From positions 4,549 through 36,548 of the forward strand of contig JAHHGX010000022.1 in the NCBI GenBank assembly GCA_019359675.1: DNA of 32,000 nt. Direction: 5' to 3'. The stretch's first letter is position 1; each line of letters opens with the position of its first letter. The translations under genes and the position numbers were made by a program. The notes beneath the pieces are model-generated. The model did no database searches and was not told where the DNA came from. It worked only from the letters and a program-made list of their open reading frames with translations. Positions 2 through 32,000 of the stretch are shown piece by piece. Source of the stretch: Calothrix sp. FI2-JRJ7. Its GTDB lineage: Bacteria; Cyanobacteriota; Cyanobacteriia; Cyanobacteriales; Nostocaceae.

Positions 2-133
2 TTATGTGCCTCACGTTGGAAAGAAGCTCTTAATGCTGGGGTGGCGCCATCGGTTGTGTTAGCATCAACGCATGAGAAGGCTTTGGAGTATGTAGCGCTA
101 GAAGTGTTACAAGAATATGCTGTAGGAAATTAA
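2..133 (+). CDS. 3' end of an unidentified gene entering from upstream of the window (partial)
   Basis: This is the only frame open from the window edge. It reads ...ASTHEKALEYVALEVLQEYAVGN and ends at TAA 131-133. The other two + frames hit stops within about 60 nt. Product not recognised. Confidence 0.35.
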   Translation, partial: LCASRWKEALNAGVAPSVVLASTHEKALEYVALEVLQEYAVGN

Positions 134-136
134 CCT

Positions 137-173
137 TGTGGGGTGGGCTTTGATTGCCCGCCCATTCCCCACA
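137..173 (+). terminator. GC-rich stem-loop after the partial CDS (possible terminator, no U-tract)
   Basis: TGTGGGG (137-143) pairs with CCCCACA (167-173), with inner GGGC/GCCC pairs. It is followed by gaattac rather than a T-run. Confidence 0.3.
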
Positions 174-533
174 GAATTACATAAATTCCATCTTTGGATA
201 GAAGAATAAATTATAAAAGTATGTATAAAAGTTTGTCATTACTGAGAATAAGACGTAAAAATAATTACTAAATACGGAATATTAAGAGCGAAAAGAATGG
301 TGAATTGGTGATAGATGGATGATTTTGTTTGAATAGAGCAAAAAAATCATAAATAAAAAACTAAAAAAGATTTTTTGTAAGCAATTACCTGTAATATTTT
401 ACTGGTAATTCACCGTGTAAAAAATTCATGAAGTTATCTGGGGGCTGAGTTGTTTATATTTAGAGCAATCGGCGCCTGTAGATAGAAGAGTGGGTTTTTT
501 GCAATATCACTCAAATTAAAATATCAGAAAACC

Positions 534-2165
534 ATGAATGCAACTTGGCAACATATCAACCAAGTAATGGACTTTGGTTTTTGGATAAGCGCGCAGCAAC
601 ATTTAGCACAAGCGTCGCCGAGTCTAGCAGCAAATCAAACAGTTGATTACTTACAAGGGATAGCCCAACAGGTAGTAGGGTTTTTGCCGCGATTATTAGG
701 CGCCGTTTTGATACTGCTGGTTGGTTGGCTAATAGCTGCTGTCGCTGCTGCCATTGTGCGAGGAATTCTTAACCGCACAAAGATAGATAACCGTATTGCG
801 GCAAGCGTTACAGGTAGAGATGCACCTCAAGTTGAGGGATTTATCTCTAGTTTGGTGTTTTGGAGCGTTTTATTACTAACGATAGTAGCTGTTCTTGACA
901 CGTTAGACTTACGTGTAGCATCGCAACCTCTCAACAGTTTCCTTAACCAAATTGGTACTTTTTTACCCAAACTCGTTGGCGCCGGAATACTCTTGGCTAT
1001 TGCTTGGGCAGTTGCAACTATCGTCAAGCTAATAACTGTACGTGGGTTAGATGCAGCACGTATTGACGAACGTATAAATTCGCCAAGTGACGAAAGAACA
1101 GGTATAAACCAGTTATCGCTTTCAGAAACGATAGGTAATGCGCTTTACTGGTTTATATTTTTAATGTTTTTGGTTCCAGTCCTCGATACGTTGGGACTGC
1201 AACAAGCGTTAGTACCAGTACAGTCGCTAATTACTCAAATTATTTCGATTCTGCCAAATATTCTTGCCGCAGCTTTAATTGCAGCAGCTGGTTGGTTTCT
1301 TGCCAATGTTGTGCGACGAATTGTTACAAATTTGTTAGCAACGACAGGTATAGACCACATGGGGAGTCGCTTTGGTTTGAGTAATGCATCTGGAGCGCAG
1401 ACGCTATCGAGTATCATCGGCACAATTGTTTATGTGTTGATTTTGATACCTGTAGCAATTTCTGCATTGACTGCGTTACAAATTGAGGCTATTTCAGTAC
1501 CTGCCATTGCAATGCTGCAACAGGTGCTAGGGGCAGTACCATTAATTTTCACCGCTGCAACGATTTTGATTGTCGCTTACTTCGTAGGACGCTTTGTATC
1601 TGAATTAGTTACAAGTATTCTTACTAGTATTGGATTTAACAATATCTTCAGCATTATTGGTTTACCGTCTTTAAATCGCCCTGTTGTTACATCTGTAAGC
1701 ACTACACCAAGGGCGCCAGCGAAAACACCATCGGAAATTGCGGGCATAGTAGTGCTGGTGGGTATAATGTTATTCGCCACGGTTGCAGCAGTAAATGTCC
1801 TAAATATTGCAGCCTTAACAGTGTTAGTCACTGGAATTTTGGTTATTCTAGGAAGAATTTTAGCAGGGTTGATAATATTTGCGATTGGTTTGTTCTTTGC
1901 AAATTTAGCGTTTAGCATTATTGCGAGTACAGGTAATGCTCAAGCGCGAATTCTCGGACAAGTAGCGCGAATTTCTATTATTACCTTAGTATCGGCAATG
2001 GCTTTACAACAAATAGGTGTAGCTCCCGATATCGTCAACCTCGCATTCGGATTACTCTTAGGAGCTATAGCTATAGCTATCTCGCTTGCCTTTGGTTTAG
2101 GTGGACGCGATATCGCACGCTCTCAAGTTCAAGAATGGCTCGACTCTTATAAGAGTAAAAGTTAA
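534..2165 (+). CDS. Polytopic membrane protein, conserved-TM-helix-repeat / mechanosensitive-channel-like
   Basis: 543-aa ORF with an ATG start. It has many hydrophobic helices separated by short charged linkers (for example LILLVGWLIAAVAAAIVRGILNRTKIDNRIA, recurring in variant form). A strong terminator follows. It contains 3 GGCGCC sites. Confidence 0.75.
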   Translation: MNATWQHINQVMDFGFWISAQQHLAQASPSLAANQTVDYLQGIAQQVVGFLPRLLGAVLILLVGWLIAAVAAAIVRGILNRTKIDNRIAASVTGRDAPQVEGFISSLVFWSVLLLTIVAVLDTLDLRVASQPLNSFLNQIGTFLPKLVGAGILLAIAWAVATIVKLITVRGLDAARIDERINSPSDERTGINQLSLSETIGNALYWFIFLMFLVPVLDTLGLQQALVPVQSLITQIISILPNILAAALIAAAGWFLANVVRRIVTNLLATTGIDHMGSRFGLSNASGAQTLSSIIGTIVYVLILIPVAISALTALQIEAISVPAIAMLQQVLGAVPLIFTAATILIVAYFVGRFVSELVTSILTSIGFNNIFSIIGLPSLNRPVVTSVSTTPRAPAKTPSEIAGIVVLVGIMLFATVAAVNVLNIAALTVLVTGILVILGRILAGLIIFAIGLFFANLAFSIIASTGNAQARILGQVARISIITLVSAMALQQIGVAPDIVNLAFGLLLGAIAIAISLAFGLGGRDIARSQVQEWLDSYKSKS

Positions 2166-2205
2166 ATAATAGTAAGTTAGAGTTCAGATTTTTAGTTCAG
2201 TTCAG

Positions 2206-2240
2206 AAACCCGACTTCTTACATAAGAAGTTGGGTTTTTT
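2206..2240 (+). terminator. Rho-independent terminator of the 534-2165 gene
   Basis: AAACCCGACTTCTTA pairs with TAAGAAGTTGGGTTT (one G-U pair), followed by a run of six T (2235-2240). Confidence 0.85.
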
Positions 2241-2258
2241 GCAACAGATGCCTCAATT

Positions 2259-2396
2259 GTCATGCTGAACGTAGTGAAGCATCTCTATATGATATGTAGG
2301 TTATAACAGTCCTAAATAATCTGTAAAATTTATTTAATCACAAAGGCACAAAGGACACAAAGAAAGAAAATAAGATGCTTCGTACCTCAGCATGAC
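2259..2396. mobile_element. MITE-like element, GTCATKCTGAGC-terminus family (138 bp, non-coding)
   Basis: Terminal inverted repeats are GTCATGCTGAACGTAGTGAAGCATC (2259-) and GATGCTTCGTACCTCAGCATGAC (-2396). The interior has RCACAAAG tandem octamers. Related copies lie at 14301-14400, 3107-3131 and 10152-10161. Confidence 0.6.
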
Positions 2397-2440
2397 ACAA
2401 GTTGGTATTTTATCTGTTTATAGGGCAGCAATGCGTAACT

Positions 2441-3037
2441 TTAATTTAAAATTTGCATAAATATCCCTAATAAATGGTCAATTGGGCGAAGTGCTATTTC
2501 ATAAATATCAATATATAGTTTTTGTTGTTCTAATTTTAGAAACTTCCATAAAATTCCAGTGGTAATACATCCGTAAATAGTATCTAGCGTCTGATTATTT
2601 TTTTGATTAAATATTTGTGCAGCTATCATTTCTGAAGCGCATTGTCCTAACCCGCTATTAATATCTTGATTTTTCGCTTCTACTAGTACCATAACAGGCG
2701 CCTTGATATAATACTGTTCAGGACTAGTGCTAATTAAAAAATCTGGTGAACCATTTAAACCTTTTGTAATATCAACGTTAAACTCTTTTCCAGAAAATAG
2801 AGATATACTATAATCACTTTTGCGTTTTACTTCTAGCAGTACAGGAAATATAATTAACTCACCGCGTGCTTTCTCAGTATTAATAGCTGTGGCAAGCGGT
2901 ACGTTTTCATCCAACGTCATCATCAAAAAGTCACTTGGCTTTACTGGTTCGACATTGGTAAATAATTGTATCCTTTCTTCTAAAGTTAAACTAAATTGTT
3001 CGACGACATCTTGTAATGAAAAAGAACTATAAGGCAT
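2441..3037 (-). CDS. PD-(D/E)XK-fold protein (HsdR-N-terminal-like nuclease domain), function unknown
   Basis: 198-aa ORF. The D...ExK signature is SPDFLIS ... VMVLVEAKNQD ... GQCASEM, laid out as in HsdR N-terminal-like domains. Confidence 0.6.
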   Translation of the reverse strand: MPYSSFSLQDVVEQFSLTLEERIQLFTNVEPVKPSDFLMMTLDENVPLATAINTEKARGELIIFPVLLEVKRKSDYSISLFSGKEFNVDITKGLNGSPDFLISTSPEQYYIKAPVMVLVEAKNQDINSGLGQCASEMIAAQIFNQKNNQTLDTIYGCITTGILWKFLKLEQQKLYIDIYEIALRPIDHLLGIFMQILN

Positions 3038-3045
3038 ATTCTTAA

Positions 3046-3085: not shown

Positions 3086-3106
3086 ATTTGATACGGTATA
3101 AATCTA

Positions 3107-6887: not shown

Positions 6888-7628
6888 ATGGCAGTTGCTT
6901 ATTTCAGCTTTTATGCAGAGCTAAACGATTTTTTACCCCGACATAAAAGAGAGGTTCGCATCAGTCATAACTTTACTCTTCGGGCATCTGTCAAGGATGT
7001 GATAGAATCCTTTGGGGTACCGCATCCGGAAGTGCATAGTATAGAAGTGAACTCAAAATTTGTTGATTTTACTTATATAGTGCAGGATGAAGACAATATA
7101 AACGTCTATCCTATCTCACTTGGTGCAACAGTCAAGGCAAGTATATCAGTTCAACCGCAACCAGAGACTTATAACTTTGTCTTAGATATCCATTTAGGAA
7201 AACTTGCAAATTCTTTACGGTTGTTGGGGTTTGACACGTTATACCGTAATGACTACGAAGACAAGGAACTTGCACGAGTTTCCAGTAGTGAGAATCGAAT
7301 TTTGCTAACGCGCGACAAAGGATTGTTGATGCGGAGTATAGTAGTGTACGGTTACTACGTTCGACAAACTGACCCGAACAAGCAAATAGTCGAATTGATT
7401 CAAAGATTTAACTTATTAAAACACGTGGCGCCGTTTCGTCGATGCATTCGTTGTAACGGATTGTTAAGCCAAGTAAACAAAGAGTTGGTAATATCAGAGA
7501 TACCAGAAACCGTCAAAAAACTCAACGATGAATTCCACCGTTGTCAAAATTGCCATCAGGTTTACTGGAAAGGTTCGCACTACGACCAGTTACACTCATT
7601 TATCGATAGGATATTAAAAGACACGTAG
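6888..7628 (+). CDS. Mut7-C RNase (PIN-like) domain protein with N-terminal ubiquitin-like domain and C-terminal zinc ribbon
   Basis: 246-aa ORF. FVLDIHLGKLANSLRLLGFDT and LLTRDKGLL are typical of Mut7-C. The zinc ribbon is CIRCNG...CQNCHQVYWKGSHY. The TAG stop (7626-7628) lies inside the GTAGGG terminus of the adjacent repeat element. Confidence 0.8.
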   Translation: MAVAYFSFYAELNDFLPRHKREVRISHNFTLRASVKDVIESFGVPHPEVHSIEVNSKFVDFTYIVQDEDNINVYPISLGATVKASISVQPQPETYNFVLDIHLGKLANSLRLLGFDTLYRNDYEDKELARVSSSENRILLTRDKGLLMRSIVVYGYYVRQTDPNKQIVELIQRFNLLKHVAPFRRCIRCNGLLSQVNKELVISEIPETVKKLNDEFHRCQNCHQVYWKGSHYDQLHSFIDRILKDT

Positions 7629-8437
7629 GGTGCGTAACACTATAACAATATCTCAAAGAAGCGATAATTTCGTAGCGTTACGCACCATATATATTGGTTA
7701 CAATTATGGTTTGCGGTGCGTAACGCTATAAATCACACACCATATATATTGATTACAATTATGGTTTGCGGTGCGTAACGCTATAAGTCACACACCATAT
7801 ATATTGATTACAATTATGGTTTGCGGTGCGTAACGCTATAAATCACACACCATATATATTGATTACAATTATGGTTTGCGGTGCGTAACGCTATAAGTCA
7901 CACACCATATATATTGATTACAATTATGGTTTGCGGTGCGTAACGCTATAAGTCACACACCATATATATTGATTACAATTATGGTTTGCGGTGCGTGACG
8001 CTATAAGTCACACACCATATATATTGGTTACAATTATGGTTTGCGGTGCGTAACGCTATAAGTCACACACCATATATATTGATTACAATTATGGTTTGCG
8101 GTGCGTGACGCTATAAGTTACACAGTATATATATTGATTACAATTATGGTTTGCGGTGCGTGACGCTATAAGTCACACACCATATATATTGGTTACAATT
8201 ATGGTTTGCGGTGCATGACGCTATAAGTTACGCACTATATATATTGGTTACAATTATGGTTTGCGGTGCATGACGCTATAAGTTACGCACTATATATATT
8301 GGTTACAATTATGGTTTGCGGTGCGTGACGCTATAAGTTACACACTATATATATTGGTTACAATTATGGTTTGCGGTGCGTGACGCTATAAGTCTTATCG
8401 CTACGTTGAAGTTTTTTCGTAGCGTCACACACCCTAC
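7625..8437. mobile_element. REPIN-like composite: two inverted GTAG-hairpin units bracketing a 55-bp tandem array
   Basis: The left end is GTAGGGTGCGTAACACTA (7625-). The right end is TAGCGTCACACACCCTAC (8420-8437), its inverted complement. The flanks extend the symmetry (cac.../...gtg). There is no ORF inside. Confidence 0.7.
7687..8395 (+). repeat. Tandem array of 12 full units plus one partial unit, exact 55-bp period
   Basis: The unit is atatatattgRttacaattatggtttgcggtgcRtRacgctataaRtYaCRCaSY. Unit starts fall at 7687, 7742, 7797 ... 8347 with no indels. Variation is confined to about 6 positions, and neighbouring units share variants (units 10 and 11 are identical). Confidence 0.95.
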
Positions 8438-8559
8438 GTGCCTGATTGGGTTTGTTGGTTGTTTTGGGTGAGATGTGCGAGAATAAGAAACAAATAAACA
8501 GTCTTCGATACATTTGTTAACAAAGAGAATTTATAGAATGTTGAAATTAAGGCAGAATT

Positions 8560-10032
8560 ATGTATTCAGCAAAAGCAGCAGCACTTTTAATATTAGATGC
8601 TCAAAATAGAACGAAAGCTATACCAGAGAAGTTAGAAAGTGAATTAACCTATGTAGCAGGGTGGTGCTACTGGTATAAAGGAGCAAGTCTCGTCAAAGAG
8701 TTTGCTTACTCTTGTTTGGAGTTGTTAACGAAAGAGAAATTAAACTTGATATTGAAAGAATTAGGGTTAACGGTAGCGAAGTCATCGACAAAAGAAGATA
8801 TAGTAAAAGTATTAAAAGAAGTTAAGATTACAGAGTTACGTGCAATTTTAACGAAAAAAGTTATGCCAGACTTTGAATTGTCGGTAGTGACTTTTGAGAA
8901 ATTGTTCCGTATATCTACAGCAAACCGTCGCAGACTGCAAGAAATAAAAGATGCTCTACCCATTCTTTACTGGGGAGAATCAAAATATGGACAGTATCCA
9001 GTTTTCAGTTTATTGAAAGTATTAGAGATTTTACATGCAGATAAAACGTTATTAAAACAGTTTTATGATTATGTCGAAGAAAAGTTGACGGCAAAAGCAA
9101 AACAAATTGCACGAGAGAAAGAATTAGAGCTTTCGTTTAAAGAGAAGTTTTTGGGTAGAGTTGCACAATATCCAGAGATAGCGAAGAATGATAATATAAA
9201 ACAGTTAGTTAAACAAGAGAAATATCGAGCAGCACATAATTTTTTAAATAATTTAATTCAGCAGAAAGAAAGAATTGACCGTGAGAATGCAATTGAACTT
9301 TCGTTCAAATACGAGTTTACAGAAAAAGCGGCAATATATCCAGATTTGATTTATGATAATAATCTTCAACAGTTGATTAAAAAAGAATATTATAAAAGTG
9401 CGTGCAGATTATTGAATGAGTTAATTCAAAAACAAGATAAAATCAAGCGTCAAAGAGCATTAGAGCTTTCATTTCGAGACAAATTCGTCCAAAAATCGGT
9501 AGAATATCCAGATTTAGGACAAAGAAAAAATATTCAAAAGCTACTTATCGAAGAAAAATATCAAGCTGCATATAACGCATTATCTAATTTAATTCAAGAA
9601 CAAGAAAAATATGCACGACTTCAGCAGCAATATTTAGACTTGTGTGAGGAGTTGGGTACAGAAGCAGAACAACACAAAAATTTAAATGCGTTAACAAAAG
9701 CTATTCAAGAATTACAGGTCATTCATAAAGAATTAACGAACAGCAAGACAATGGGAGACTTAGCAAAATCGTTAGATAATTTGCTGCAACAAGGAATAGA
9801 AATTTTTAGCCAAACTGCTGACCGTCAATTTCAGTATTCCAATGAATTACAATCAGATAACAAAGCGTTAAAGTTTTGTCAGATGGTTTTATCAAGCAAA
9901 GGGAACTGTCCAGAAAATCAATTACGGTGGAAAAATATTCAAAACGTTCCAGAAGCTATTGCCAATTACGAAGACTTAATTTTTTCTCATCCGGTACTAC
10001 TGCAAATTCAGGGTGTCTCAGAACTTACGTAA
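8560..10032 (+). CDS. Hypothetical helical protein with three internal repeats of about 57 aa
   Basis: 490-aa ORF. The repeats are ELSFKEKF..YPEI..NIKQLVKQEKYRAAHNFLNNLIQQ, ELSFKYEF..YPDL..NLQQLIKKEYYKSACRLLNELIQK and ELSFRDKF..YPDL..NIQKLLIEEKYQAAYNALSNLIQE. No family recognised. The gene contains no GGCGCC. Confidence 0.65.
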   Translation: MYSAKAAALLILDAQNRTKAIPEKLESELTYVAGWCYWYKGASLVKEFAYSCLELLTKEKLNLILKELGLTVAKSSTKEDIVKVLKEVKITELRAILTKKVMPDFELSVVTFEKLFRISTANRRRLQEIKDALPILYWGESKYGQYPVFSLLKVLEILHADKTLLKQFYDYVEEKLTAKAKQIAREKELELSFKEKFLGRVAQYPEIAKNDNIKQLVKQEKYRAAHNFLNNLIQQKERIDRENAIELSFKYEFTEKAAIYPDLIYDNNLQQLIKKEYYKSACRLLNELIQKQDKIKRQRALELSFRDKFVQKSVEYPDLGQRKNIQKLLIEEKYQAAYNALSNLIQEQEKYARLQQQYLDLCEELGTEAEQHKNLNALTKAIQELQVIHKELTNSKTMGDLAKSLDNLLQQGIEIFSQTADRQFQYSNELQSDNKALKFCQMVLSSKGNCPENQLRWKNIQNVPEAIANYEDLIFSHPVLLQIQGVSELT

Positions 10033-10201
10033 AAACCACACGAAATATGTCCATTTGTTACATCTATTTGATGTATTATAACTGAATTATTAAAAAAATA
10101 TTAACAAGTTTCAACATAAGTAAAAAATTGTGTATTTTGATAACTCTACATGTCATGCTGAAATTTTGAGTTATAAACGAATTAATTTATAATCCAAAAG
10201 A

Positions 10202-10675
10202 ATGATAAGGCGCCGCTTCATCGTCCGTTTTGTAATTACACTACTGATACTTGGTATACTATCAGTAATATATATCATTTTAATGCCTTTGCATGACATA
10301 GATTGTAACGCAGAACCATTTATGTCATCCAAAGTCGAAAAATTCCAAGTAAGTGCAACAAAAGTAGTAGCTCAACCTTGGTTAGGGCAACACATGGTAT
10401 ACGGTATTTTTACAGTCCCCGACGAATATAAAGAAACCCAATTTTTTATATTAACAGTGAAAGGCGCCGGAAGTTTTTGCGAAAAACCATTTGGAAACAA
10501 ACTAAAAGTAGACGATATAATTGCTCAACCCGGTACACACTTAATAAAAGGCTATATCAGAACAAGATTAGCACTGAAATCAATTTTACAAGGTTTATAC
10601 AGTAGTATTAGTAGTAAAGATAACTGGACGTTAACATATCCTAGTAAAAAGGTTATAATTACAACAAGTACATAA
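10202..10675 (+). CDS. Hypothetical protein with N-terminal transmembrane anchor
   Basis: 157-aa ORF. It has an RRRF motif followed by a hydrophobic helix (VITLLILGILSVIYIILM). It contains 2 GGCGCC sites. No family recognised. Confidence 0.5.
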   Translation: MIRRRFIVRFVITLLILGILSVIYIILMPLHDIDCNAEPFMSSKVEKFQVSATKVVAQPWLGQHMVYGIFTVPDEYKETQFFILTVKGAGSFCEKPFGNKLKVDDIIAQPGTHLIKGYIRTRLALKSILQGLYSSISSKDNWTLTYPSKKVIITTST

Positions 10676-10797: not shown

Positions 10798-12258
10798 GTG
10801 ACTACGTACAACAGTTTGCCAACTAACGAGCATGATGTCAACTTAGAACTGGCGCCACAAGAAACAGTATTTCAATGGACAAAACAATGGTATCCGGTTG
10901 CTGTTGTTGATTTTTTAGACTCATCTCGTCCTCATGCAATGCAATTATTTGGAAAAAATATCGTATTGTGGAAAGATGGCTCTGGAAAATGGCGATGTTT
11001 TGAAGATGCTTGTCCTCACCGATTGGCGCCTTTTTCAGAAGGACGAGTAGAAGCAGATGGTACATTAATGTGTGCTTACCATGCTTGGCGTTTTGATGGT
11101 GAAGGAAATTGTGTTAACATTCCCCAAGCTAAAGATGAACAAACGGAGTCGCGACATTGCTCAAATTCTAAATCTTGTGCAGTTTTTTATCCAACTCAAG
11201 AACAACAAGGATTATTGTGGGTATGGGCAGAGTCAGGAGTAGAAGCACAACTTGAAAGTCAGTCATTTCAACCGTTAATTACCCCAGAGTTGGAAAACAA
11301 GTCAGATAAAGTAGTAAAGTTATTTTGGAATTTTCGTGACCTGGCGTATGGATGGGACTTTTTCATGGAGAATGTTTCTGACCCAACACATGTTCCTGTC
11401 TCGCATCATGGAATTGTTGGCAACCGATACAAGGACGCTAAATATTACGACATGATTCGCTTGAGCGAGATATCAAGTCAATCCGCGTTTGCTTATGAAA
11501 TTACACCAACTGCCCCAAATATAAAGCAAGCTATTCATGATTTTCAACCACCTTGTTTAATGCGGATTGTTTCAACTTTATTTGATGGTGGTCAACTGAT
11601 TCTAATTTTATATGCTACTCCGACTCGTCCAGGATGGTGCCGTCATATTGGGTGCCAGATATTAGTCAAAAATGACCAAAACAAAACACCACCAGGTTTA
11701 GGATTTTTTGGATTACCGATGCCAACTTGGTTAGGTCATATTCTCGCTTCGTTATTTCTACACCAAGATATGGTTTTTCTTCATTATCAAGAAAAGATTA
11801 TAGCTCAAAAACAAGGTAGATGGTTGAACAAAGTTTTCACGCCTAACCCCCAAGATAAGATGATAATCGCGTTTCGCAATTGGTTAGAAAATAAAGCAGG
11901 TGGTGGCATTCCTTGGGCGCCAGAATGTAACTCACACCTTCCTACTCCGGAACTAGATAAACAAAAGCTATTTGATGTTTGGACAGCACACACCCAGCAT
12001 TGTAGCGTTTGTCAAAATGCTTTAAAAAATATAAATAGGTTGATTATCTCTGCTTTTGCAACATCTATAATAGTTACATTTTTGAGTGTAATTATTGATG
12101 CGCGCGCTGTTGCAGCAAAAACAGTTGCATCTTTTCCTCCTACTAGTTTTTGGTTAGCTCTTTTAGGCGCCATTGCCTCTGCTAGCATAGGTTATCTACT
12201 TCTAAAATTGCGTCGCTTGTTTTACGTATATGAGTTTGAACACGCACGTAATAACTAA
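10798..12258 (+). CDS. Rieske [2Fe-2S] oxygenase of the pheophorbide-a-oxygenase (PaO/Tic55-like) family
   Basis: 486-aa ORF. The GTG start is preceded by AAGGAG at good spacing. The Rieske motif is CPHRLAPFSEG...CAYHAWRF. The mononuclear-iron region is NVSDPTHVPVSHHG. A PaO-type C-terminal CSVC motif is followed by TM helices. Confidence 0.85.
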   Translation: MTTYNSLPTNEHDVNLELAPQETVFQWTKQWYPVAVVDFLDSSRPHAMQLFGKNIVLWKDGSGKWRCFEDACPHRLAPFSEGRVEADGTLMCAYHAWRFDGEGNCVNIPQAKDEQTESRHCSNSKSCAVFYPTQEQQGLLWVWAESGVEAQLESQSFQPLITPELENKSDKVVKLFWNFRDLAYGWDFFMENVSDPTHVPVSHHGIVGNRYKDAKYYDMIRLSEISSQSAFAYEITPTAPNIKQAIHDFQPPCLMRIVSTLFDGGQLILILYATPTRPGWCRHIGCQILVKNDQNKTPPGLGFFGLPMPTWLGHILASLFLHQDMVFLHYQEKIIAQKQGRWLNKVFTPNPQDKMIIAFRNWLENKAGGGIPWAPECNSHLPTPELDKQKLFDVWTAHTQHCSVCQNALKNINRLIISAFATSIIVTFLSVIIDARAVAAKTVASFPPTSFWLALLGAIASASIGYLLLKLRRLFYVYEFEHARNN

Positions 12259-12465: not shown

Positions 12466-13011
12466 ATGGCAATATCTCATGCGATTTTGGCGGCATTATT
12501 AGATTCAGCGTGTAGTGGTTATGATTTGTCGAAGCAGTTTGCGGGGACTGTGGGTTTTTTTTGGCACGCAACACAGCAGCAGATTTACAGAGAGTTGAGT
12601 AAGTTAGAGGAAGAGGGACATATTGTTGCAGAAGTAATTAGGCAAGAAGGGCGCCCAGACAAGAAGGTATTTTCGGTTACAGAGGTAGGGAAAGAATATC
12701 TACGTAAATGGATATTAGAACCATCAGAAGTTAGTCCAATGAAAGATGAGTTGTTAGTAAAAATATTTGCAGGTGAAGTGGCACCGAAACAGAAAATTAT
12801 CAGAGAATTAGAAAATCACCGCCGACAGCACCAAGACAAGTTAAAAGCGCATCGAGCTATTGAGGAGAAGCATTTTGTAAGTCCGCAAACTTTACCTTTG
12901 GCAGAAAAGTACCGCTATTTAACGCTTCAGCAGGGAATACGCTACGAAATTGAATGGTTAAAGTGGTGTGAAGATACTATAAAGTTTTTACATGAAGATA
13001 ACTCTAATTGA
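12466..13011 (+). CDS. PadR-family transcriptional regulator
   Basis: 181-aa ORF. The N-terminal winged helix is ILAALLDSACSGYDLSKQF...QQQIYRELSKLEEEGHI...GRPDKKVFSVTEVG, with a C-terminal helical dimerisation region. Its stop overlaps the downstream ORF. Confidence 0.8.
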   Translation: MAISHAILAALLDSACSGYDLSKQFAGTVGFFWHATQQQIYRELSKLEEEGHIVAEVIRQEGRPDKKVFSVTEVGKEYLRKWILEPSEVSPMKDELLVKIFAGEVAPKQKIIRELENHRRQHQDKLKAHRAIEEKHFVSPQTLPLAEKYRYLTLQQGIRYEIEWLKWCEDTIKFLHEDNSN

Positions 13012-13019
13012 ATTGGGAT

Positions 13020-13895
13020 ATGAAAAAATTATTAATTACAGGCGCCAGTGGTTTTCTAGGGTGGCATATAATCGAGGTAGGACGCGAACACTACGAAGTT
13101 TACGGTACATATAACTCGCACACGTTAGAAGTAAATGGTGCCAGTTTATTCAAAGCTAACTTATCAGACTTTGAAGAACTGAAACAAATCTTTACAAATA
13201 TTAAACCAGATGCAGTAATTCATACAGCAGCAATTTCGCAACCAAACTATTGTCAAAACCATCCCGAAGAGTCTCACGCAATTAATGTCACAGCATCAGC
13301 AAACATAGCAGGATTGTGCGCTGAGTATTCTATACCATGTGCATTTACATCAACTGACCTGGTATTCGATGGTAAAAATGCACCATATAAAGAAACAGAT
13401 ACAGTCAACCCTGTAAATTTATACGGGGAACAAAAGGTCTTAGCAGAACAAGCGATGTTAAAAGAATATCCTAAAACAGCTATATGTAGAATGCCATTAA
13501 TGTTTGGCGCCGCAACACCCACAGCAAAAAGTTTCATGCAAGGGTTTATACAAACACTGCAATCTGGCAAAGAATTAAAATTATTTACCGATGAATTTAG
13601 AACACCAGCAAGTGGAATAACAGCCGCCAAGGGATTACTATTAATGATAGAAAAACAATATCACGGTATTATTCACCTAGGTGGGAGAGAAAGAATATCT
13701 CGCTACGACTTCGGAAAGTTAATGATTGAAGCATTTCATTTACCAGATACAAACCTAAAAGCATGTAAACAGCAAGACGTACAAATGTCGGCGCCACGTC
13801 CCGCAGATGTATCATTCGACAGTACAATAGCATTTACATTAGGATACAACCCATTATCAATAAAAGAAGAATTGGTAGGGTGCGTAACGCCATAA
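13020..13895 (+). CDS. NAD(P)-dependent SDR-family epimerase/reductase (RmlD-like substrate-binding fold)
   Basis: The ORF track starts at TTG 13008. ATG 13020 gives MKKLLITGASGFLG (Rossmann GxxGxxG) at the N-terminus. A YGEQK catalytic YxxxK motif is present. The last 7 codons (VGCVTP plus stop, 13875-13895) are supplied by a GTAG-hairpin repeat. Confidence 0.8.
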   Translation: MKKLLITGASGFLGWHIIEVGREHYEVYGTYNSHTLEVNGASLFKANLSDFEELKQIFTNIKPDAVIHTAAISQPNYCQNHPEESHAINVTASANIAGLCAEYSIPCAFTSTDLVFDGKNAPYKETDTVNPVNLYGEQKVLAEQAMLKEYPKTAICRMPLMFGAATPTAKSFMQGFIQTLQSGKELKLFTDEFRTPASGITAAKGLLLMIEKQYHGIIHLGGRERISRYDFGKLMIEAFHLPDTNLKACKQQDVQMSAPRPADVSFDSTIAFTLGYNPLSIKEELVGCVTP

Positions 13896-15959: not shown

Positions 15960-16077
15960 ATAGTGGTCGTCACTGTTACACGGACCTGAAATGTTGAACC
16001 AACGAGGCATAACAATGGAGCTAAGAGAAGCTGTGACAATGCCCAGTGTAGCGCATATTGTATAGTTGCTTGCACGC

Positions 16078-17905: not shown

Positions 17906-19204
17906 ATGCAATTTAAAATAAAGGAATGTTGCGTGTTCAATCAAATTTTACGGGGTTGGGGAGCATTATCTGCGGTAGCTTTGGCGCCGGAACAACTTTG
18001 GTGGCAAGCGCTAAGTTTAGCATTTGAGGCGCCTGTAGTATCAAATTTAAACGCAATAGACGCTTCAGCTATACGTAATTGGGCATCTGGAATAAATTTT
18101 ACACCTGAAGTTACTAAACTTACACGTAGAGGCAGAAAGTGCAGTAATATCCGGCAAACTCTTTATATGGCATTATTTGGGTTGAGACGAGGAGAAATAG
18201 GAGAATCTTTAGGTGGTGGTTTTGTTAACCGTTTAGGCGCCAATGCCTTTATGCCAGATATATTATTTTATAAATCACAAGGTTTAAATCGTATATATGA
18301 TTATTATTTAGATGGGCCTGCTGAGTTGTTAATTGAGTTTATCACACAGGGCGATGAAAGTTACGACACAGAACTTAAGCGTTCGTACTATCAAGCGGCA
18401 GGTGTCCCCGAATATTGGATTTTTGATGTAGAGCAGGAAAATATAGAGTTTCTTCGGTTAGAAGACGGAGTGTATCAACCGCAACAACTTTTAGACGGAC
18501 GTTACGAAGTTTCTAGTATTCCAGGTTTAACGTTTTTACCAGCAAAACTTTGGGAAGCAGCAGACGATTTTACTTATTTATCAGAAAATGATTTATTTGA
18601 GGTAGCTAGCGATGCTCCCAAAGTTGGCAGCATGAAACCTGTGGGTGAAGGAATTGATTGGAGTAGAGGTGAATTAGGATTTGCTCCAGCGTTGGAACCT
18701 GTACCAATTATGTTTGAAGATTATATATACTGGTGTCCAGAACCAAAGTTTGAATTTATGGATGGTAAACCTTATATAGGTAGCAGAGACGGAATTAAAG
18801 GACTTACGGGAATGTTTTTAATGACGTTTGGGTTGGTTGAGTCAGTTAAATTATTACATCCGCGTGAGTGGGTAGAAGCATTAATCGCTCAAAGATTTGC
18901 TGTGCAAAATATCCAAGAATATAAAGCACAAGTGTGGCGATTAGTATATGAAATTGCCGCATTACTACGTGGAAAATATGGCGCCACTAGATTGGGTGTA
19001 ATAGGAGGATTAGTTAAACCAGAACCACTGAATTTTTGGGATGAAATTACAATATTAGCCTGGAATTTACCATTAGGACAAATGGGGAAAGCATATATAG
19101 CAGTGTCCGAGTTCAGCGAATTATTTTACTTTCATTTAATTGATGCAGAAGATGCGACAGATATACAACTCGATGCTATCGCTTCTGAATTAGTTGAAAT
19201 TTAA
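17906..19204 (+). CDS. Uma2-family (DUF820) PD-(D/E)XK endonuclease fused to a second degenerate Uma2-like N-segment and a nucleotidyltransferase-like tail
   Basis: The 432-aa core is MPDILFYKS...ELLIEFITQGDESYDTELKRSYYQAAGVPEYWIFD. The second half restarts with IMFEDYIYWCPEPKFEFMDGKPYIG. The C-terminus, GATRLGVIGGLVKPEPLNFWDEITILAW, resembles an inactivated minimal-NTase motif. Confidence 0.65.
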   Translation: MQFKIKECCVFNQILRGWGALSAVALAPEQLWWQALSLAFEAPVVSNLNAIDASAIRNWASGINFTPEVTKLTRRGRKCSNIRQTLYMALFGLRRGEIGESLGGGFVNRLGANAFMPDILFYKSQGLNRIYDYYLDGPAELLIEFITQGDESYDTELKRSYYQAAGVPEYWIFDVEQENIEFLRLEDGVYQPQQLLDGRYEVSSIPGLTFLPAKLWEAADDFTYLSENDLFEVASDAPKVGSMKPVGEGIDWSRGELGFAPALEPVPIMFEDYIYWCPEPKFEFMDGKPYIGSRDGIKGLTGMFLMTFGLVESVKLLHPREWVEALIAQRFAVQNIQEYKAQVWRLVYEIAALLRGKYGATRLGVIGGLVKPEPLNFWDEITILAWNLPLGQMGKAYIAVSEFSELFYFHLIDAEDATDIQLDAIASELVEI

Positions 19205-19347: not shown

Positions 19348-20472
19348 ATGAAGTACAAGTTGATTGATTTATTTGCAGGCGCCGGCGGATTAACTACAGG
19401 GTTTCATCTGGCAGATTTTGAATCATTGTGTGCCATTGAGGTTGATAAAAAAGCTTTGGCAACATATAAGCATAATTACCCAGGTGCAAAAATAGTTAAT
19501 GAAGATATATGTAAAGTAAATCCGAGAGAATTACGTCAATGGCTTGGTTTACAATCAGAAGAATTGACGGTAGTTATTGGTGGGCCACCTTGCCAAGGTT
19601 TCTCTAGAAATATTCCTGCGGGTTGTCGTAGTCTTGATGAGTCTCGCAATCAACTTTACAAAACTTTTTTAGAGTTTGTAGAAGAGTTTCGACCGATTTA
19701 TGTAGTAATGGAAAATGTACCTGAAATCTTAAATGCTTATAAAGGTATAGTCAGGTATGAAATTACTAAGCAATTAGAGTCATTCGGTTATAAAGTTGCT
19801 TCCGCTTCATTGAATGCAGCACATTATGGAATACCCCAAACAAGAACGAGAGCTTTTTTTATTGCCAGCTTAGATAAAACACCTTGTTTTCCTAAACCTA
19901 CGCATTCAGAAGAAAAATCTACGAAGCAACTTAATTTATTTGACAATGGCATTTCTTCAATTGTTACAGTCAGAGATGCAATTGGAGATTTACCACCATT
20001 AGATGCAGGACAAGAATATAACGAAGATAATTATCCATCACAGGTAAATAGTATATATCAAGCTATGATGCGCTCTGAAAGTACAAAACTTGTAAATCAC
20101 GTCGCTCGTGCTTTGAGTCCTGTTCAAATAGCAAGAGTTCGTGTTTTAAAAGAAGGGCAAGATGCAAAACATTTACCACCAGAACTGGCGCCTAAAAAAC
20201 ATTATAGCGGCGCCTATGGTAGATTATATTGGGATAAACCAGCAAGAACAATTACAAGATGGCTGTTTCATCCAGGTTCGGGTAGATTTTTCCATCCCAC
20301 ACAAGATAGAACTATAACAATACGCGAAGCAGCAAGGTTACATTCTTTTCCCGATAAATTTCATTTTTTAGGTACATATACAGAAATGTCATCTCAAATA
20401 GGAGAATCTGTACCTCCCCTTCTTGCTAAAGCTATAGCTATAGCTACGTGTTTAATTCAAGATTCTCATTAG
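19348..20472 (+). CDS. DNA (cytosine-5)-methyltransferase, no adjacent canonical restriction gene
   Basis: Motif I is DLFAGAGGL, IV is GGPPCQGFS, VI is ENV, VIII is QTRTRAF, IX is TIREAARLHSFPD and X is GESVPPLL. The track starts at TTG 19312, but ATG 19348 (MKYKLIDLFAG) fits the family. 240 bp of non-coding DNA follow. Confidence 0.9.
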   Translation: MKYKLIDLFAGAGGLTTGFHLADFESLCAIEVDKKALATYKHNYPGAKIVNEDICKVNPRELRQWLGLQSEELTVVIGGPPCQGFSRNIPAGCRSLDESRNQLYKTFLEFVEEFRPIYVVMENVPEILNAYKGIVRYEITKQLESFGYKVASASLNAAHYGIPQTRTRAFFIASLDKTPCFPKPTHSEEKSTKQLNLFDNGISSIVTVRDAIGDLPPLDAGQEYNEDNYPSQVNSIYQAMMRSESTKLVNHVARALSPVQIARVRVLKEGQDAKHLPPELAPKKHYSGAYGRLYWDKPARTITRWLFHPGSGRFFHPTQDRTITIREAARLHSFPDKFHFLGTYTEMSSQIGESVPPLLAKAIAIATCLIQDSH

Positions 20473-26065: not shown

Positions 26066-26108
26066 CAATTTTTCGATATTTAAGGCGCCATACTAATCCA
26101 CTAATAAG

Positions 26109-27748: not shown

Positions 27749-30052
27749 TTAATCTTGCGGTGTTTCTTCCAAAGCTTGTTCAAGTGCTATTGCCTTTTGC
27801 TTATCAGCTTTTTCGGCTTTATTATTTCCTAACTTGCTATATACTTGACTTCGCAATGCATAAGCGTCATGTAGTTGAGGTTCAAGTTGTATAGCTTTAT
27901 TTGCATCAGCTAAGGCGCCTTTATAGTCTTTTAGCTGAATATATATATAACCACGATTAATATAATTCCAGTAGCTCTTAGGATTAAGTTTAATAACTTG
28001 ATTATAATCGGCAATGGCGCCAAAATAATCGCGTAACTTTGTTCTAGCTTCTGCCCGTTGATAGTATACTATATGAGGTTTATGATTTAGCTTTAGTAAA
28101 TAATCATAGTCTTGTATTTCAGCTTTGATATTACCAAGCTGAGAATTTAAGGAAGCACGAATAAAACGGTGTTTAGTATCATTAGGTTGTAATCGCACAA
28201 TTTGATTGTAGTCTGTTAAGGCGCCTTTATGGTGTCGCATGACTTTAAATGCTCTCGCACGTTTAATATATGTATCTACATCATTGGGATTTTGTTGTAA
28301 TATTGCTGTTGCTTTTTGAATTTCATGCTTCTGCATACTGAGAAAACGTTCGCGTCGCTGTTGCGGTTTCTCTAATATATGCGGAATTTCACTTAAGAAA
28401 CTAATTGCACGTGGTGATATTGCGTATAGAGAACCTGTTAATGCCCCAAGGAGACTACCGCAGTAAAGAACAATTAAAGAAATTCGCGTTATCCATTTAC
28501 CTTGTGATTCATTATAACGTCTAATTATATCTTTAACTAAAAAATTTCTGCTAGCAGCAGGTAAGTTATTATACCCAAATTGTTTAAAATATATATAAAC
28601 ATTATTAATTAGATTATCTTGATTACTAGGTTTACTCTGTTTAAGAAGTCGCTGTAATTTAGAATTAGCTTTAGCCGCGCGGAAGCTTTGTGGTATACTA
28701 AAAGCTGTTAATAGTATAAATATAAATAATATAGGTTGAGAAATAGAAAGGCGAGCTAGTACAAATAAGCCAAATAGTTGAAATAAAACATCGCTATAAG
28801 CAAAACGTGAAAATAAAAGTAAGTTTGCTATTTTACCACCATCAAGCGGGTAAATAGGCAATAAATTTATTAAATTTAAACCAATTAACATCCAAGCAGT
28901 GTCTTTTACCCAAACTACATCAATTGTATTACCAGAGATAAAAGCCAAAAATATTCCCAAAATTAAACCGGGCAAAGGGCCAGCGAGTAAAACCCAAACA
29001 TTTTGAGTAAGTGTAGTATCATATTTCTGGCTTGCTGTTGCAACGGCGCCTAAAAAGGGTAAAAATAACATTGAAGTATCACGATAACCGCATAAATGCA
29101 TGGCAATTAGGTGTCCAGCTTCGTGTAGCATTATCACCAGCACAAAAATTGCCAAGCGATGTATTTCAAACATGTGCATAAAAGATGCTACAAACAAACC
29201 AAAACTTATAAACAGCATCCAAGCACGAAATTTACCATCGACCAGTCCCTTATTCTGACTTTCTGTACGCTTAAACCCTTCAACCTCCAGTTCAACAGGA
29301 ATATCAACCCGCATTTCAGGATTAGTTTTAGCTGCTAATAAGCGCTGGTTAATAATTTTTGTAACTTTATGTTTCCCATCAACCAATTTCTTAGCAACTT
29401 TCCATGCACCCTGTAATGTCAGACTATATTTTTTTTCCTCAACTAATCGTAGTTTCCCTGCTTTAAATAAATAATTTAAATGTTTATTGCTAAATTTTTC
29501 TAAAGCTATCGTAAATTTATCAGGGGATAAACCAATTGCAGGTTTTGCTATACTTACTTTTTCGACAGTATCTTGATGTAACTGCCATTGTACCAGAGTT
29601 TCTGGTGTGTAAGCATCTTGAATAGTAAAGTTAGGCGTTTCACCAATTACCCCATCAGCTTTACCATTCATTGTCAATAATAAACTACTGTCTTGAAAAA
29701 ATGTATAAAATTCAATATCAAATAAATTAACAGCTTCAAGCGGATAACGAATTCCTACCTTTGCATACGACTTCAGCGATTGATTATACAACAGTATTTC
29801 TACCACTGTTGGTGGGTCAATTTGAAGCATGGGTTCTACTTGCACATAGCAACACGCTTTAAAACCCAATTCCTCTAGTTCAGAAATGGCGCCTTTAAAT
29901 AATTGTTGAAGGTATAATGGTACTTGTTTACTATTGATAATTTCGTATTTAGGGCGCCGAAAAACAGACTTGAAAATAAACAAAAACGCTACTAAATAGT
30001 TGATAACAGCGAAAAGCACCAAAATAGCAATGGGGTAGAGAATATATTGCAT
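27749..30052 (-). CDS. Site-2-protease-like (M50) membrane metalloprotease with unknown N-terminal domain and C-terminal TPR repeats
   Basis: HEAGHLIAMH (HExxH) and NLLPIYPLDGG (the NxxPxxxLDG second S2P motif) lie within TM helices. The last 180 aa or so are TPR units. The track starts at TTG 30070, but ATG 30052 (MQYILYPIAIL) is more likely. Confidence 0.8.
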   Translation of the reverse strand: MQYILYPIAILVLFAVINYLVAFLFIFKSVFRRPKYEIINSKQVPLYLQQLFKGAISELEELGFKACCYVQVEPMLQIDPPTVVEILLYNQSLKSYAKVGIRYPLEAVNLFDIEFYTFFQDSSLLLTMNGKADGVIGETPNFTIQDAYTPETLVQWQLHQDTVEKVSIAKPAIGLSPDKFTIALEKFSNKHLNYLFKAGKLRLVEEKKYSLTLQGAWKVAKKLVDGKHKVTKIINQRLLAAKTNPEMRVDIPVELEVEGFKRTESQNKGLVDGKFRAWMLFISFGLFVASFMHMFEIHRLAIFVLVIMLHEAGHLIAMHLCGYRDTSMLFLPFLGAVATASQKYDTTLTQNVWVLLAGPLPGLILGIFLAFISGNTIDVVWVKDTAWMLIGLNLINLLPIYPLDGGKIANLLLFSRFAYSDVLFQLFGLFVLARLSISQPILFIFILLTAFSIPQSFRAAKANSKLQRLLKQSKPSNQDNLINNVYIYFKQFGYNNLPAASRNFLVKDIIRRYNESQGKWITRISLIVLYCGSLLGALTGSLYAISPRAISFLSEIPHILEKPQQRRERFLSMQKHEIQKATAILQQNPNDVDTYIKRARAFKVMRHHKGALTDYNQIVRLQPNDTKHRFIRASLNSQLGNIKAEIQDYDYLLKLNHKPHIVYYQRAEARTKLRDYFGAIADYNQVIKLNPKSYWNYINRGYIYIQLKDYKGALADANKAIQLEPQLHDAYALRSQVYSKLGNNKAEKADKQKAIALEQALEETPQD

Positions 30053-30184
30053 AGCAATGTTATAGAGCAAACTATGCTTAGTATTCCCAGTTTTTCATGT
30101 TGGAGTTAGATTGAAATGTGCTTTTTAAGTTCTTCAGCAAATACACGTACTTTGAGAGGAATATAAGCACGGTTCGTTAGTTGG

Positions 30185-30520
30185 GTGAAAGAATTGGCGC
30201 CGTTATTATCGAGTCGTGGCGTAGCATTTCTTAATGCTCCAGTTATGAGTTTAGCAGCAAAGAACGCGGCGAATTTAATGTTGGCAAAAAGTCATGCACC
30301 GATGTTTCCTATTGATTTAGTTAAGAAAGATTTTCGCTATGTTATGCAAAGCGCGCGGGAAGTAGATGCTGTAATCCCTGTATCTACGGCTATTCACAAT
30401 ATTTATTTGGATGCAGCTGCGCTTGGGTATGGGGGTAATAATATTACAGGTGTTGCTCGGCTTTTATTTGATATTCTAGAGACCGAATATACCCAAATAT
30501 ATAGCTTTGTAATACATTAG
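30185..30520 (+). pseudogene. Remnant of a 3-hydroxyisobutyrate/6-phosphogluconate-dehydrogenase-family (NAD_binding_11) gene
   Basis: Only the C-terminal helical part is present: FPIDLVKKDFRYVMQSAREVDAVIPVSTAIHNIYLDAAALGYG. The Rossmann N-domain is absent and there is no ATG start. An internal segment between ...FLNAPV and the C-domain appears to be missing. Confidence 0.6.
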
Positions 30521-30522
30521 CT

Positions 30523-30585
30523 GGTGCGTGGCGCTACGAGTCTTATAATTACATTGAAGTTTATTCATGGCGCCACACACCCTAC
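30523..30585 (-). repeat. GTAG-hairpin repeat, copy G (reverse orientation), carrying a GGCGCC site in one arm
   Basis: GGTGCGTGGCGCTA ... TGGCGCCACACACCCTAC. Relative to copy C (8374-8437), an arm change A>G is matched by T>C on the other arm. Confidence 0.75.
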
Positions 30586-30632
30586 TTGGGAATGTCGCTA
30601 TTTTACGCATTTGGAGGCGCCAATAAAATCGG

Positions 30633-30696
30633 GTAGGGTGCGTGAAAGCTATTACTATCAATCAATGTAACGCAAAATACAGTGCTTTTACGCACC
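30633..30696 (+). repeat. GTAG-hairpin repeat, copy H (divergent arms), plus a partial terminus at 30712-30735
   Basis: GTAGGGTGCGTGAAAGCTA ... GTGCTTTTACGCACC. The arms differ from the consensus but still pair. ccaccctacttgg recurs at 30578-30590 and 30723-30735. Confidence 0.65.
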
Positions 30697-30917
30697 ATTA
30701 ATTACGTTAAGTAAGCGCCATTCCACCCTACTTGGTATTAAAACTTAATAATTTTAAATTTTTTTACATATTACCTACAAACTTTATATAGTCTTTACCA
30801 AAATATTATTGTTTGTACTGAGATAATTTAAACTGCGAAAAGTGCCGCCGGCAACAACCAAAAGAAATGGAAGAATGGCTTTTGCAGTTTGTTTAATAAA
30901 TTAAAATTTATATAAAT

Positions 30918-30943
30918 ATGGGACAGGCAAGGATGCCCATCCC
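30918..30943 (-). terminator. Imperfect hairpin downstream of gcvP (possible terminator; also a common cyanobacterial intergenic repeat type)
   Basis: On the - strand, TGGGATGGGCATCCTTGCCTGTCCCA is followed by tatttatataaatttt. Confidence 0.4.
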
Positions 30944-30986
30944 ACAAAAGTGATTATTTCACAAGAGTGATTATTTAATTTTTGGG

Positions 30987-32000
30987 TTATTCGCTGTATG
31001 CTTCCATAGGGAGGCAAGAACAAACGAAGTTTCTATCACCGAATGCTGCGTCGATGCGACTGACGCTGACCCAGAATTTATTATCGCGTGTCCACGGCGC
31101 CGGATATGCAGCTTGTTCTCTGGTATATGGATGTGTCCAGTCACCAGAAATTAAACTTTCTGCGGTGTGGGGGGCATTTTTCAAGAGGTTGTCTTGAATA
31201 TCCATTTTCCCAGATTCAATTTCGGCAATTTCTTGGCGAATGGAAATTAATGCATCACAGAAACGGTCGAGTTCCTCTTTTGATTCGCTTTCGGTTGGTT
31301 CCACCATAATAGTACCAGCGACGGGCCATGATACGGTGGGTGCATGGAAACCGTAGTCCATCAAGCGTTTTGCTACGTCATCGATGTCGATATTGGCAGA
31401 TTTTTTCAACGCGCGCAAATCTAAGATACACTCGTGGGCGACATAACCGTTACTACCTTTGTAAAGTACTGGGTAGTGGTTTTCTAACCGTTTAGCGATG
31501 TAGTTGGCGTTGAGAATTGCAATTTTGGTAGCTTCGGTTAAACCTTTGGCGCCCATCATTACAATATACATCCAAGAAATTACTAGGATGCTGGCACTTC
31601 CCCAAGGTGCAGCAGAAACGGCGCCTATCGATTTTTGATTATCAGATATATCAACAACAGCGTGTCCTGGGAGGAAAGGGACTAGGTGTGAAGCAACACC
31701 AATGGGACCCATGCCGGGGCCACCACCACCATGAGGTATGCAGAAGGTTTTGTGGAGGTTTAAGTGGCAAACGTCGGCGCCTATATCTCCAGGACGGCAA
31801 AGTCCGACTTGAGCGTTCATGTTGGCGCCGTCCATATATACCTGTCCACCATGAGAATGAACGATGGTACAAATGTCTTTGATGGCTTCTTCAAATACAC
31901 CGTGGGTAGATGGGTATGTCACCATCAACGCTGAAAGGTTGTTACTGTGCTTTTCGGCTTTTGCTTTCAGATCGGCAACATCAATATTACCGTCTTTATC
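30987..32000 (-). CDS. gcvP: Glycine dehydrogenase (decarboxylating), glycine-cleavage P protein, C-terminal part (5' end outside the window)
   Basis: ...[38 protein letters not shown]...[49 protein letters not shown] (PLP-lysine region). The frame stays open to the window edge. The stop is at 30987. Confidence 0.95.

Follow-up and report, generated by a model that had tools for sequence, protein, structure and literature searches.

The question raised by this 32,000-bp stretch of Calothrix sp. FI2-JRJ7 DNA (the window, i.e., the whole of the DNA analysed; 38.2% G+C) is whether the hexamer GGCGCC takes the place of HIP1 (GCGATCGC), the highly iterated palindrome (HIP) of most cyanobacteria, and how such sites might be made and kept. 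The origin and function of HIPs have been debated for about 30 years. In a survey of 97 cyanobacterial genomes (Elhai, Life 2015; PMC4390886) GGCGCC was named the alternate HIP for Calothrix PCC 7103, with an observed/expected ratio (O/E) of 30 and 1535 copies per Mb, and likewise for Calothrix D253, of which 19 kb were known, and HIP1 was not over-represented in either strain. The sequence-only reading of the window, which had proposed GGCGCC as a replacement for HIP1, was unsure whether that survey lists this hexamer; it does, for both strains. The proposal is therefore supported, but it was already published for the same clade in 2015, and the window adds no new kind of element. What is new beyond Elhai 2015 is the clade-wide sharing together with the state of the outgroups, the saturation of Gly-Ala codon pairs, the signature left in the neighbouring hexamers and the exclusion of the local methyltransferase. 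In the later literature that we searched, GGCGCC in cyanobacteria was not discussed after Elhai 2015; two HIP1 papers of 2018 and 2026 mention neither Calothrix nor GGCGCC, and the literature on M.FspI, cyanobacterial TGCGCA methylation and Dulcicalothrix held nothing that bears on the palindrome.

Hexamers were counted exactly in the window, and O/E values were obtained from base composition, from Markov models of orders 1-4 and from 100 dinucleotide-preserving shuffles. GGCGCC is present in exactly 75 copies, the first starting at position 43 and the last at 31824 (span 43-31829), which corresponds to 2.34 sites per kb (2344 per Mb) and a mean spacing of 429.5 bp. Base composition predicts 1.55 copies (O/E 48), and the shuffled sequences contained a mean of 2.98 (standard deviation 1.63, maximum 8), so that the observed/shuffled ratio is 25. 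These exact figures agree with the earlier estimates of about 75 sites spaced about 430 bp apart against 1-2 expected. Under Markov models of order 1, 2 and 3 the O/E was 25, 30 and 7.3, respectively. The value fell to 1.6 under order 4, but this is an artefact, because almost all the GGCGC and GCGCC 5-mers of the window belong to the GGCGCC motif itself; when the models of orders 2-4 were trained with the motif masked, less than one copy was expected. The higher-order scoring that had been suggested as a check was thus carried out, and it did not bring the ratio close to 1 in any meaningful sense. The next-ranked palindromic hexamer reaches an O/E of just 4.5. It is confirmed, then, that this DNA contains about 25-50 times as many copies of GGCGCC as expected.

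The sites are dispersed through genes and spacers alike. With the 22 open reading frames (ORFs) used for the coding/non-coding split, most of which have Pfam support, 60 copies lie within ORFs (starts at 699, 978, 1712, 2697, 3304, 3397, 3535, 3604, 4249, 5244, 5553, 5691, 7427, 10209, 10463, 10851, 11025, 11916, 12166, 12650, 13041, 13506, 13790, 14843, 14940, 15667, 15756, 16170, 16693, 17212, 17499, 17983, 18028, 18236, 18980, 19378, 20187, 20209, 21140, 21239, 22555, 22763, 23042, 23556, 23932, 24172, 25222, 25548, 27914, 28016, 28220, 29045, 29888, 29953, 30196, 31096, 31548, 31620, 31776 and 31824) and 15 between them (43, 471, 4984, 6211, 6626, 20742, 20906, 26084, 26183, 26850, 27179, 27705, 27729, 30569 and 30616). 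The density is 2.38 per kb in coding and 2.21 per kb in non-coding DNA, and one of the intergenic sites (26084-26089) is conserved in Calothrix HK-06. Coding copies occur in genes of both strands and in all three phases. The commonest class, phase 0, is GGC-GCC read as Gly-Ala (35 sites; e.g., 699-704, plus strand), followed by xxG-GCG-CCx read as Ala-Pro (17 sites; e.g., 1712-1717, plus strand) and xGG-CGC-Cxx with Arg as the middle codon (8 sites; e.g., 10209-10214, plus strand). The phase examples given previously (699, 978, 1712 and 10209) and the spacer examples were all verified, and the codon-phase count (35/8/17 plus 15 intergenic) showed that the excess is not limited to one phase. 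The flanks, which had been described as variable around a hexameric unit, are indeed close to background composition out to 6 bases, with C mildly favoured and G disfavoured at position -1. A dispersed repeat element of the repetitive extragenic palindrome (REP), miniature inverted-repeat transposable element (MITE) or small dispersed repeat (SDR)-like kind was not found: no flank position is conserved within 6 bases, and 80% of the copies are inside ORFs.

The spacing of the sites is random-like, with a coefficient of variation of 0.92 (0.98 in simulations), and short intervals are not lacking, since 13 are below 100 bp when 15.4 are expected. The longest stretch free of GGCGCC measures 2782 bp (7427-10209, p=0.08) and spans a 490-residue ORF (8560-10032) that is 95% conserved in relatives and has no family match. 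Recent import of a gene was considered for this gap and dropped, given the p value, the presence of a single Gly-Ala in the ORF and its 95% conservation.

The use of codons at the sites was analyzed in the ORFs of the window. Gly-Ala dipeptides are written GGC-GCC in 35 of 52 cases (67%), when codon usage would predict 0.5, and Ala-Pro preceded by a G-ending codon is written G-GCG-CC in 17 of 20 (85%). Outside the motif, GGC makes up 9.5% of the Gly codons and GCC 10% of the Ala codons, and the Gly-Ala dipeptide itself is just 1.3 times as frequent as expected. GGCGCC is therefore near saturation wherever synonymous codons permit it, and it occasionally alters amino acids. The excess is a DNA-level property of the hexamer, and neither a protein-coding effect nor a mobile repeat; the earlier case against a codon or amino-acid cause holds, and is strengthened by the 35 Gly-Ala pairs spelled with otherwise rare codons.

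HIP1 is missing from the same DNA. No exact copy of GCGATCGC is present in the window, as had been claimed, and copies with one mismatch are not above chance (3 vs 5.9 expected). GATC occurs four times (at 23007, 24632, 25576 and 31970) against 111 expected (O/E 0.04), CGATCG is absent (4.1 expected), and GACGTC, GACGCC and GGCGTC are together absent (9.2 expected). This is the pattern of PCC 7103, in which GATC has an O/E of 0.16, the lowest of the surveyed genomes, alongside a restriction gene for GATC; depressed CGATCG goes with a truncated CGATCG methyltransferase; and GACGTC is strongly, and GACGCC/GGCGTC moderately, under-represented (PMC4390886). The alternate-HIP reading was thus borne out by the same excess of GGCGCC, the same absence of HIP1 and the same GATC and GrCGyC depletions, in a similar abundance (1535 per Mb and O/E 30 in PCC 7103; 2344 and 48 here) and in the same clade, the PCC 7103 locus compared in this work having an O/E of 44. 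The differences are that the window comes from another strain, known from a metagenome-assembled genome, that its local density is above the PCC 7103 genome average, and that GATC depletion is milder genome-wide in PCC 7103 (0.16) than in the window (0.04). About 16 further palindromic hexamers are also at zero in the window, TGCGCA, GACGTC, CTGCAG, CCATGG and ACCGGT among them, and together with the scarce GATC these zero counts are typical of heavy restriction-site avoidance.

GGCGCC resembles the HIP1 of most cyanobacteria in being a short G+C-rich palindrome at about 1-2 sites per kb that is found in all frames of genes and in spacers, and HIP1 has been linked in the literature to orphan methyltransferases. 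The two differ in sequence and length, and GGCGCC lacks the GATC core, so that it is no substrate for Dam-like or CGATCG methyltransferases. Furthermore, the two exclude each other in the 40-odd loci of the comparison, and the HIP1 sites of outgroup orthologs fall elsewhere than at the GGCGCC positions.

The distribution of the palindrome was followed by counting both motifs in related loci. In nine lineages (FI2-JRJ7, PCC 7102, PCC 7716, ERZ1066124, HK-06, PCC 7103, NIES-4105, C42_A2020_038 and a JGI metagenome bin) the O/E of GGCGCC is 19-52 (0.94-2.34 per kb) and HIP1 is at 0. Among these lineages the identity of the M50 protein to that of the window goes down to 73%; at the near end, the M50/TPR protein of the window matches MBW4599768.1 of FI2-JRJ7 with 100% identity, syntenic DNA of PCC 7102 and PCC 7716 is 93-95% identical to the window, and of two Logan contigs from SRR12347730 one (L001) is 100% identical to it over 5.9 kb and the other (L049) carries the M50/TPR gene. 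A different state was observed in the nearest outgroups sampled, which were placed by the identity of this single protein alone: a contig of SRR32619043 (L047; 68% identity) and Scytonematopsis contorta HA4267-MV1 (L039) have no GGCGCC, almost no HIP1 and a GATC O/E of 0.04-0.05, i.e., in some outgroups HIP1 and GATC were lost but GGCGCC was not acquired. The other 31 loci, mostly of Nostocales (L006-L034, L038 and L048), are rich in HIP1 (O/E 77-255), with a pooled GGCGCC O/E of 0.18. GGCGCC is thus a trait of the clade of Dulcicalothrix-type Calotrichaceae, present in all nine lineages sampled and in none of the sampled outgroups, and the variant is heritable in the whole clade rather than a one-off. 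Exceptional HIPs had been termed sporadic and 'not in clades' (PMC4390886); the nine related carriers qualify this remark. The depletion of the other GrCGyC forms and of GATC/CGATCG recurs in the relatives, except that Calothrix sp. C42_A2020_038 (L045; GGCGCC O/E 19, no HIP1) has normal GATC (O/E 0.79). Present-day avoidance of GATC is therefore not required to keep GGCGCC, and the loss of HIP1 and the avoidance of GATC are uncoupled in that lineage. The SRR32619043 contig and S. contorta may represent an intermediate state that preceded the expansion of GGCGCC, and their condition fits the order proposed by Elhai, in which HIP1 is purged first and GGCGCC expands later.

How individual sites arise was analyzed in orthologous genes, as the earlier reading had suggested. 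In a codon alignment of the M50/TPR gene (27749-30070) from five clade lineages and two outgroups there are just six site columns, and the sites of the other four lineages all fall at columns that the window also uses. Gly-Ala is kept at four of the six columns in the nearest outgroup and at three in both, and the outgroups write these columns GGTGCT, GGAGCA, GGCGCG or GGTGCC. The site at column 112 (29953-29958, minus strand) is present in all five clade lineages and was made by an amino-acid change, since Arg-Arg-Pro of the window corresponds to Gln-Tyr-Pro in both outgroups. The three sites of the methyltransferase gene described below are all common to six lineages and differ from four outgroups in a purely synonymous manner. 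Hence, in these two genes GGCGCC mostly arose via synonymous changes.

Between close relatives, the differences are mostly of GGCGCC against GGTGCC or GGCACC. The window carries two decayed sites, GGCACC at 12780-12785 (GGCGCC in PCC 7102, PCC 7716 and ERZ1066124) and GGTGCC at 13137-13142, where the change is likewise at the central CpG, and a variable site at 18028-18033, where it shares GGCGCC with ERZ1066124 and NIES-4105 and where PCC 7102 and PCC 7716 have GGCACC. Among the 21 alternative states that are one step away, the central dinucleotide accounts for 14 (p=0.002). When pairwise comparisons were pooled, divergence was 1.5% at the four outer positions of GGCGCC, as compared with 5.2% for all hexamers. 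About half of the GGTGCC/GGCACC copies have other central bases in a close relative, which in most cases reads GGCGCC, and their central rate of change is 21-29% per position vs 5-7% for generic TG. This pattern of turnover is compatible with 5-methylcytosine at the inner C of the motif. The CpG of the motif changes no faster than other CpGs, and the 5-methylcytosine reading is therefore only suggestive; for the same reason the idea of the central CpG as a special hotspot was dropped.

The hexamers that differ from GGCGCC by one base were counted in pooled DNA of the clade (190 kb) and of HIP1 genomes (565 kb). Relative to the HIP1 genomes, each of these neighbours, transversions included, is 1.6-3.6 times less common in the clade. 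The sole exception is GGTGCC/GGCACC, which is three times commoner in the clade (O/E 1.5 vs 0.51 in HIP1 genomes), and which is probably the decay product of the central CpG of GGCGCC. Depletion that extends to the transversion neighbours points to a general bias, or to selection, toward creating the site; repair of T:G to C:G alone would not produce it.

These observations can be set against the model proposed by Elhai, in which mismatch repair directed by G-5-methylcytosine preserves new sites and is self-limiting near one site per kb. The window represents the GGCGCC alternate HIP described by Elhai, here in a sister lineage, and on balance we think it probable that a methylation-linked drive, or selection, creates the sites. 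A cytosine-5 (C5) methyltransferase encoded elsewhere in the genome would recognise GGCGCC; the candidates of Elhai are two GrCGyC enzymes, the REBASE predictions for PCC 7103 comprising two GrCGyC methyltransferases and none specific for GGCGCC. Methylation-linked repair bias, or selection, would then favour any mutation that creates the hexamer, at any of its six positions, so that all the one-off neighbours would be drained into GGCGCC, while C-to-T decay at the central CpG would leak sites into GGTGCC/GGCACC. HIP1 was probably purged before this, via restriction of GATC and CGATCG; GATC and HIP1 are scarce already in the nearest outgroups, which have no GGCGCC. The ratchet of Elhai fits the loss of all the neighbours into the motif and the way in which the palindromic member of GrCGyC became fixed. 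In our ranking, a methylation-linked drive is inferred to be the most likely, selection comes second and T:G repair alone is unlikely.

Several results weigh against this account. The self-limit of the ratchet at about one site per kb is at odds with a density that reaches 2.3 per kb, with sites spaced at random and with the saturation found here. The central CpG of GGCGCC diverges by 5-7.5%, when other CpGs diverge by about 9%. Majority-rule parsimony on three lineages over 10 kb yielded seven events, six losses (five of them central C-to-T changes) and one gain, so that GGCGCC may be decaying rather than at equilibrium. Conservation at synonymous positions (1/40 against 9.7% expected, and 5/8 against 0.33) went in the expected direction but was underpowered. 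In addition, each genome was represented in the comparisons by loci of about 6-43 kb, and neither the window nor the compared loci contain a GGCGCC methyltransferase, the clade loci having no C5 methyltransferase other than the one described below.

The alternative that survives best, which we regard as possible but the less likely of the two, is that GGCGCC is kept by selection for a sequence-specific function that HIP1 serves elsewhere, i.e., a switch of palindrome 'dialect'; recombination, a transformation or self-DNA signal, or a signal for chromosome organisation are examples of functions that we would entertain with the same reserve. In its favour, GGCGCC persists in nine lineages despite deep divergence (identity at four-fold sites down to 0.53) and at orthologous positions across lineages, the outer positions of the motif are 3.5 times better conserved than background, and the draining of all the neighbours is also predicted by selection. 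HIP1 has been reported to be conserved and periodic (PMC5861425), and a 2024 preprint states that it improves natural transformation. The 67% saturation of Gly-Ala and the 85% saturation of G-preceded Ala-Pro, together with the random spacing, look on the contrary like an indiscriminate drive; recent losses exceed gains, 6 to 1; no protein that reads GGCGCC is known; and parallel saturation, instead of retention, could explain why positions are shared. The fuller version of this view, with GGCGCC as a stably inherited and actively maintained replacement of HIP1 that had a single origin at the base of the clade after the HIP1 purge and took over the function of HIP1, seems to us doubtful. If the dialect-switch reading were true, the clade would be a natural experiment on the function and formation of HIPs. 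Cultured strains exist (PCC 7102, PCC 7103, PCC 7716, NIES-4071/4105 and HK-06), and the clade is therefore tractable for discriminating between methylation-directed repair and selection.

We consider it improbable that very-short-patch-type repair acts alone, with a Vsr-like endonuclease turning T:G in GG(T/C)GCC into C:G. In E. coli, Dcm/Vsr very-short-patch repair at CCWGG alters the abundance of the target and of its T-neighbour, severalfold at most. By analogy, a repair bias coupled to methylation could make the target of a methyltransferase and its T-neighbour more or less abundant here as well, but the excess of GGCGCC is about 40-fold. That relatives differ mostly as GGCGCC against GGTGCC/GGCACC, and that the latter change centrally far more often than generic TG (see above), is what such repair would give. 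It would drain only the T-containing neighbour, yet GGTGCC/GGCACC is the one that is enriched in the clade (1.5 vs 0.51), and it cannot explain the depletion of the transversion neighbours GGAGCC, GGGGCC and CGCGCC; enriched T-neighbours with depleted transversion neighbours are the opposite of what it predicts when acting alone. No vsr gene was seen beside any methyltransferase in the loci, in a search that was not exhaustive. The neighbour-hexamer and Gly-Ala saturation patterns thus argue for a general site-creating bias over T:G repair alone.

The window does encode a full-length C5 methyltransferase (ORF 19354-20472, with the true start downstream of the TTG; Pfam PF00145, 9e-62), and its being the cognate enzyme that marks GGCGCC was considered and rejected as very improbable. 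Besides being full length, it has the CpG-specific DNMT1 as its top solved-structure matches and is present in every clade genome sampled (98, 97, 95 and 94% identity to the proteins of Dulcicalothrix desertica PCC 7102, PCC 7716, PCC 7103 and NIES-4105, respectively). Against this, a gene 72-75% identical, with the same convergent enzyme, is found in 30 HIP1-rich loci that are nearly devoid of GGCGCC; the pair is also carried by genomes in which GGCGCC is not enriched, and hence does not determine the palindrome. The convergent gene, of about 250 codons, follows the methyltransferase in PCC 7102, PCC 7103, PCC 7716, NIES-4105 and nearly all the other loci. Its 250-residue product is a type II restriction enzyme according to PADLOC (E=7e-125) and is 72% identical to a protein of Fischerella muscicola PCC 73103 that UniRef names FspI; it was recognised by PADLOC and by this UniRef name only, searches of Pfam, NCBIfam and solved structures having returned nothing. 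An ortholog of the window methyltransferase carries the label M.FspI. FspI recognises and cuts TGCGCA. TGCGCA is present in 0 copies in all the clade loci and in 1 copy vs 86 expected in the HIP1 genomes. Moreover, the gene lies at about 4.90 Mb in PCC 7103, when the second GrCGyC gene is at 8,004,478-8,005,401, and rough locus-tag arithmetic argues against the other candidate, CAL7103-RS142770. The window methyltransferase is an orphaned ortholog of M.FspI (TGCGCA), the remnant of an FspI-type restriction-modification system. It is like that system in being orthologous to the partner of the convergent FspI homologue in Fischerella, Nostoc and other Dulcicalothrix, and unlike it in standing alone, because the endonuclease gene is deleted in the window: PCC 7102 carries this gene at 11085-11837 of its locus (L002), and 11128-11877 of that locus have no counterpart between 20486 and 20489 of the window. 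The weakest alternative, that the GGCGCC excess is a by-product of protein composition, of codon usage or of a dispersed repeat that carries the hexamer, can be set aside as next to impossible, for although the Gly-Ala phase holds 35 of the 75 sites (47% of all copies and 58% of the 60 within ORFs), the sites are as dense in non-coding as in coding DNA, GGC and GCC are seldom used outside the motif, Gly-Ala is just 1.3 times as frequent as expected, and the flanks show no conserved sequence.

Intact copies of the restriction gene are present in L002-L005 and in almost all of the remaining Nostocales loci, L021 and L031 having truncated ones. In ERZ1066124 it has been reduced independently to its last 59 codons, and PCC 7716, which is 1% divergent, retains it. 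In the pooled clade loci other palindromes with a GCGC core are raised (CGCGCG O/E 7.2, GCGCGC 5.0 and AGCGCT 2.4), only TGCGCA being absent, and GCGCGC is depleted in the HIP1 genomes (O/E 0.16); a weaker general pressure on the GCGC core may exist in the clade. Rfam and tRNA scans of the window detected no RNA genes, and the status of pseudogene was rejected for gcvP, which continues past the end of the window. Between the methyltransferase and lipase genes, a Cache/HAMP histidine-kinase gene (775-782 residues) that has no counterpart in the window (20889/20890) is present in PCC 7102 (L002 12231-14579) and ERZ1066124 (L035 11610-13937). An AAA_22 ATPase gene at 14460-16097 (minus strand) of the window has no copy at the syntenic position of PCC 7102 and PCC 7716; it is inverted and adjoins the methyltransferase in PCC 7103 (L003 8164-9764), and in S. 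contorta an AAA_22 ATPase gene of comparable length (L039 2244-3857), possibly a homologue, adjoins a second C5 methyltransferase. The gene of the window may be mobile and linked to defence.

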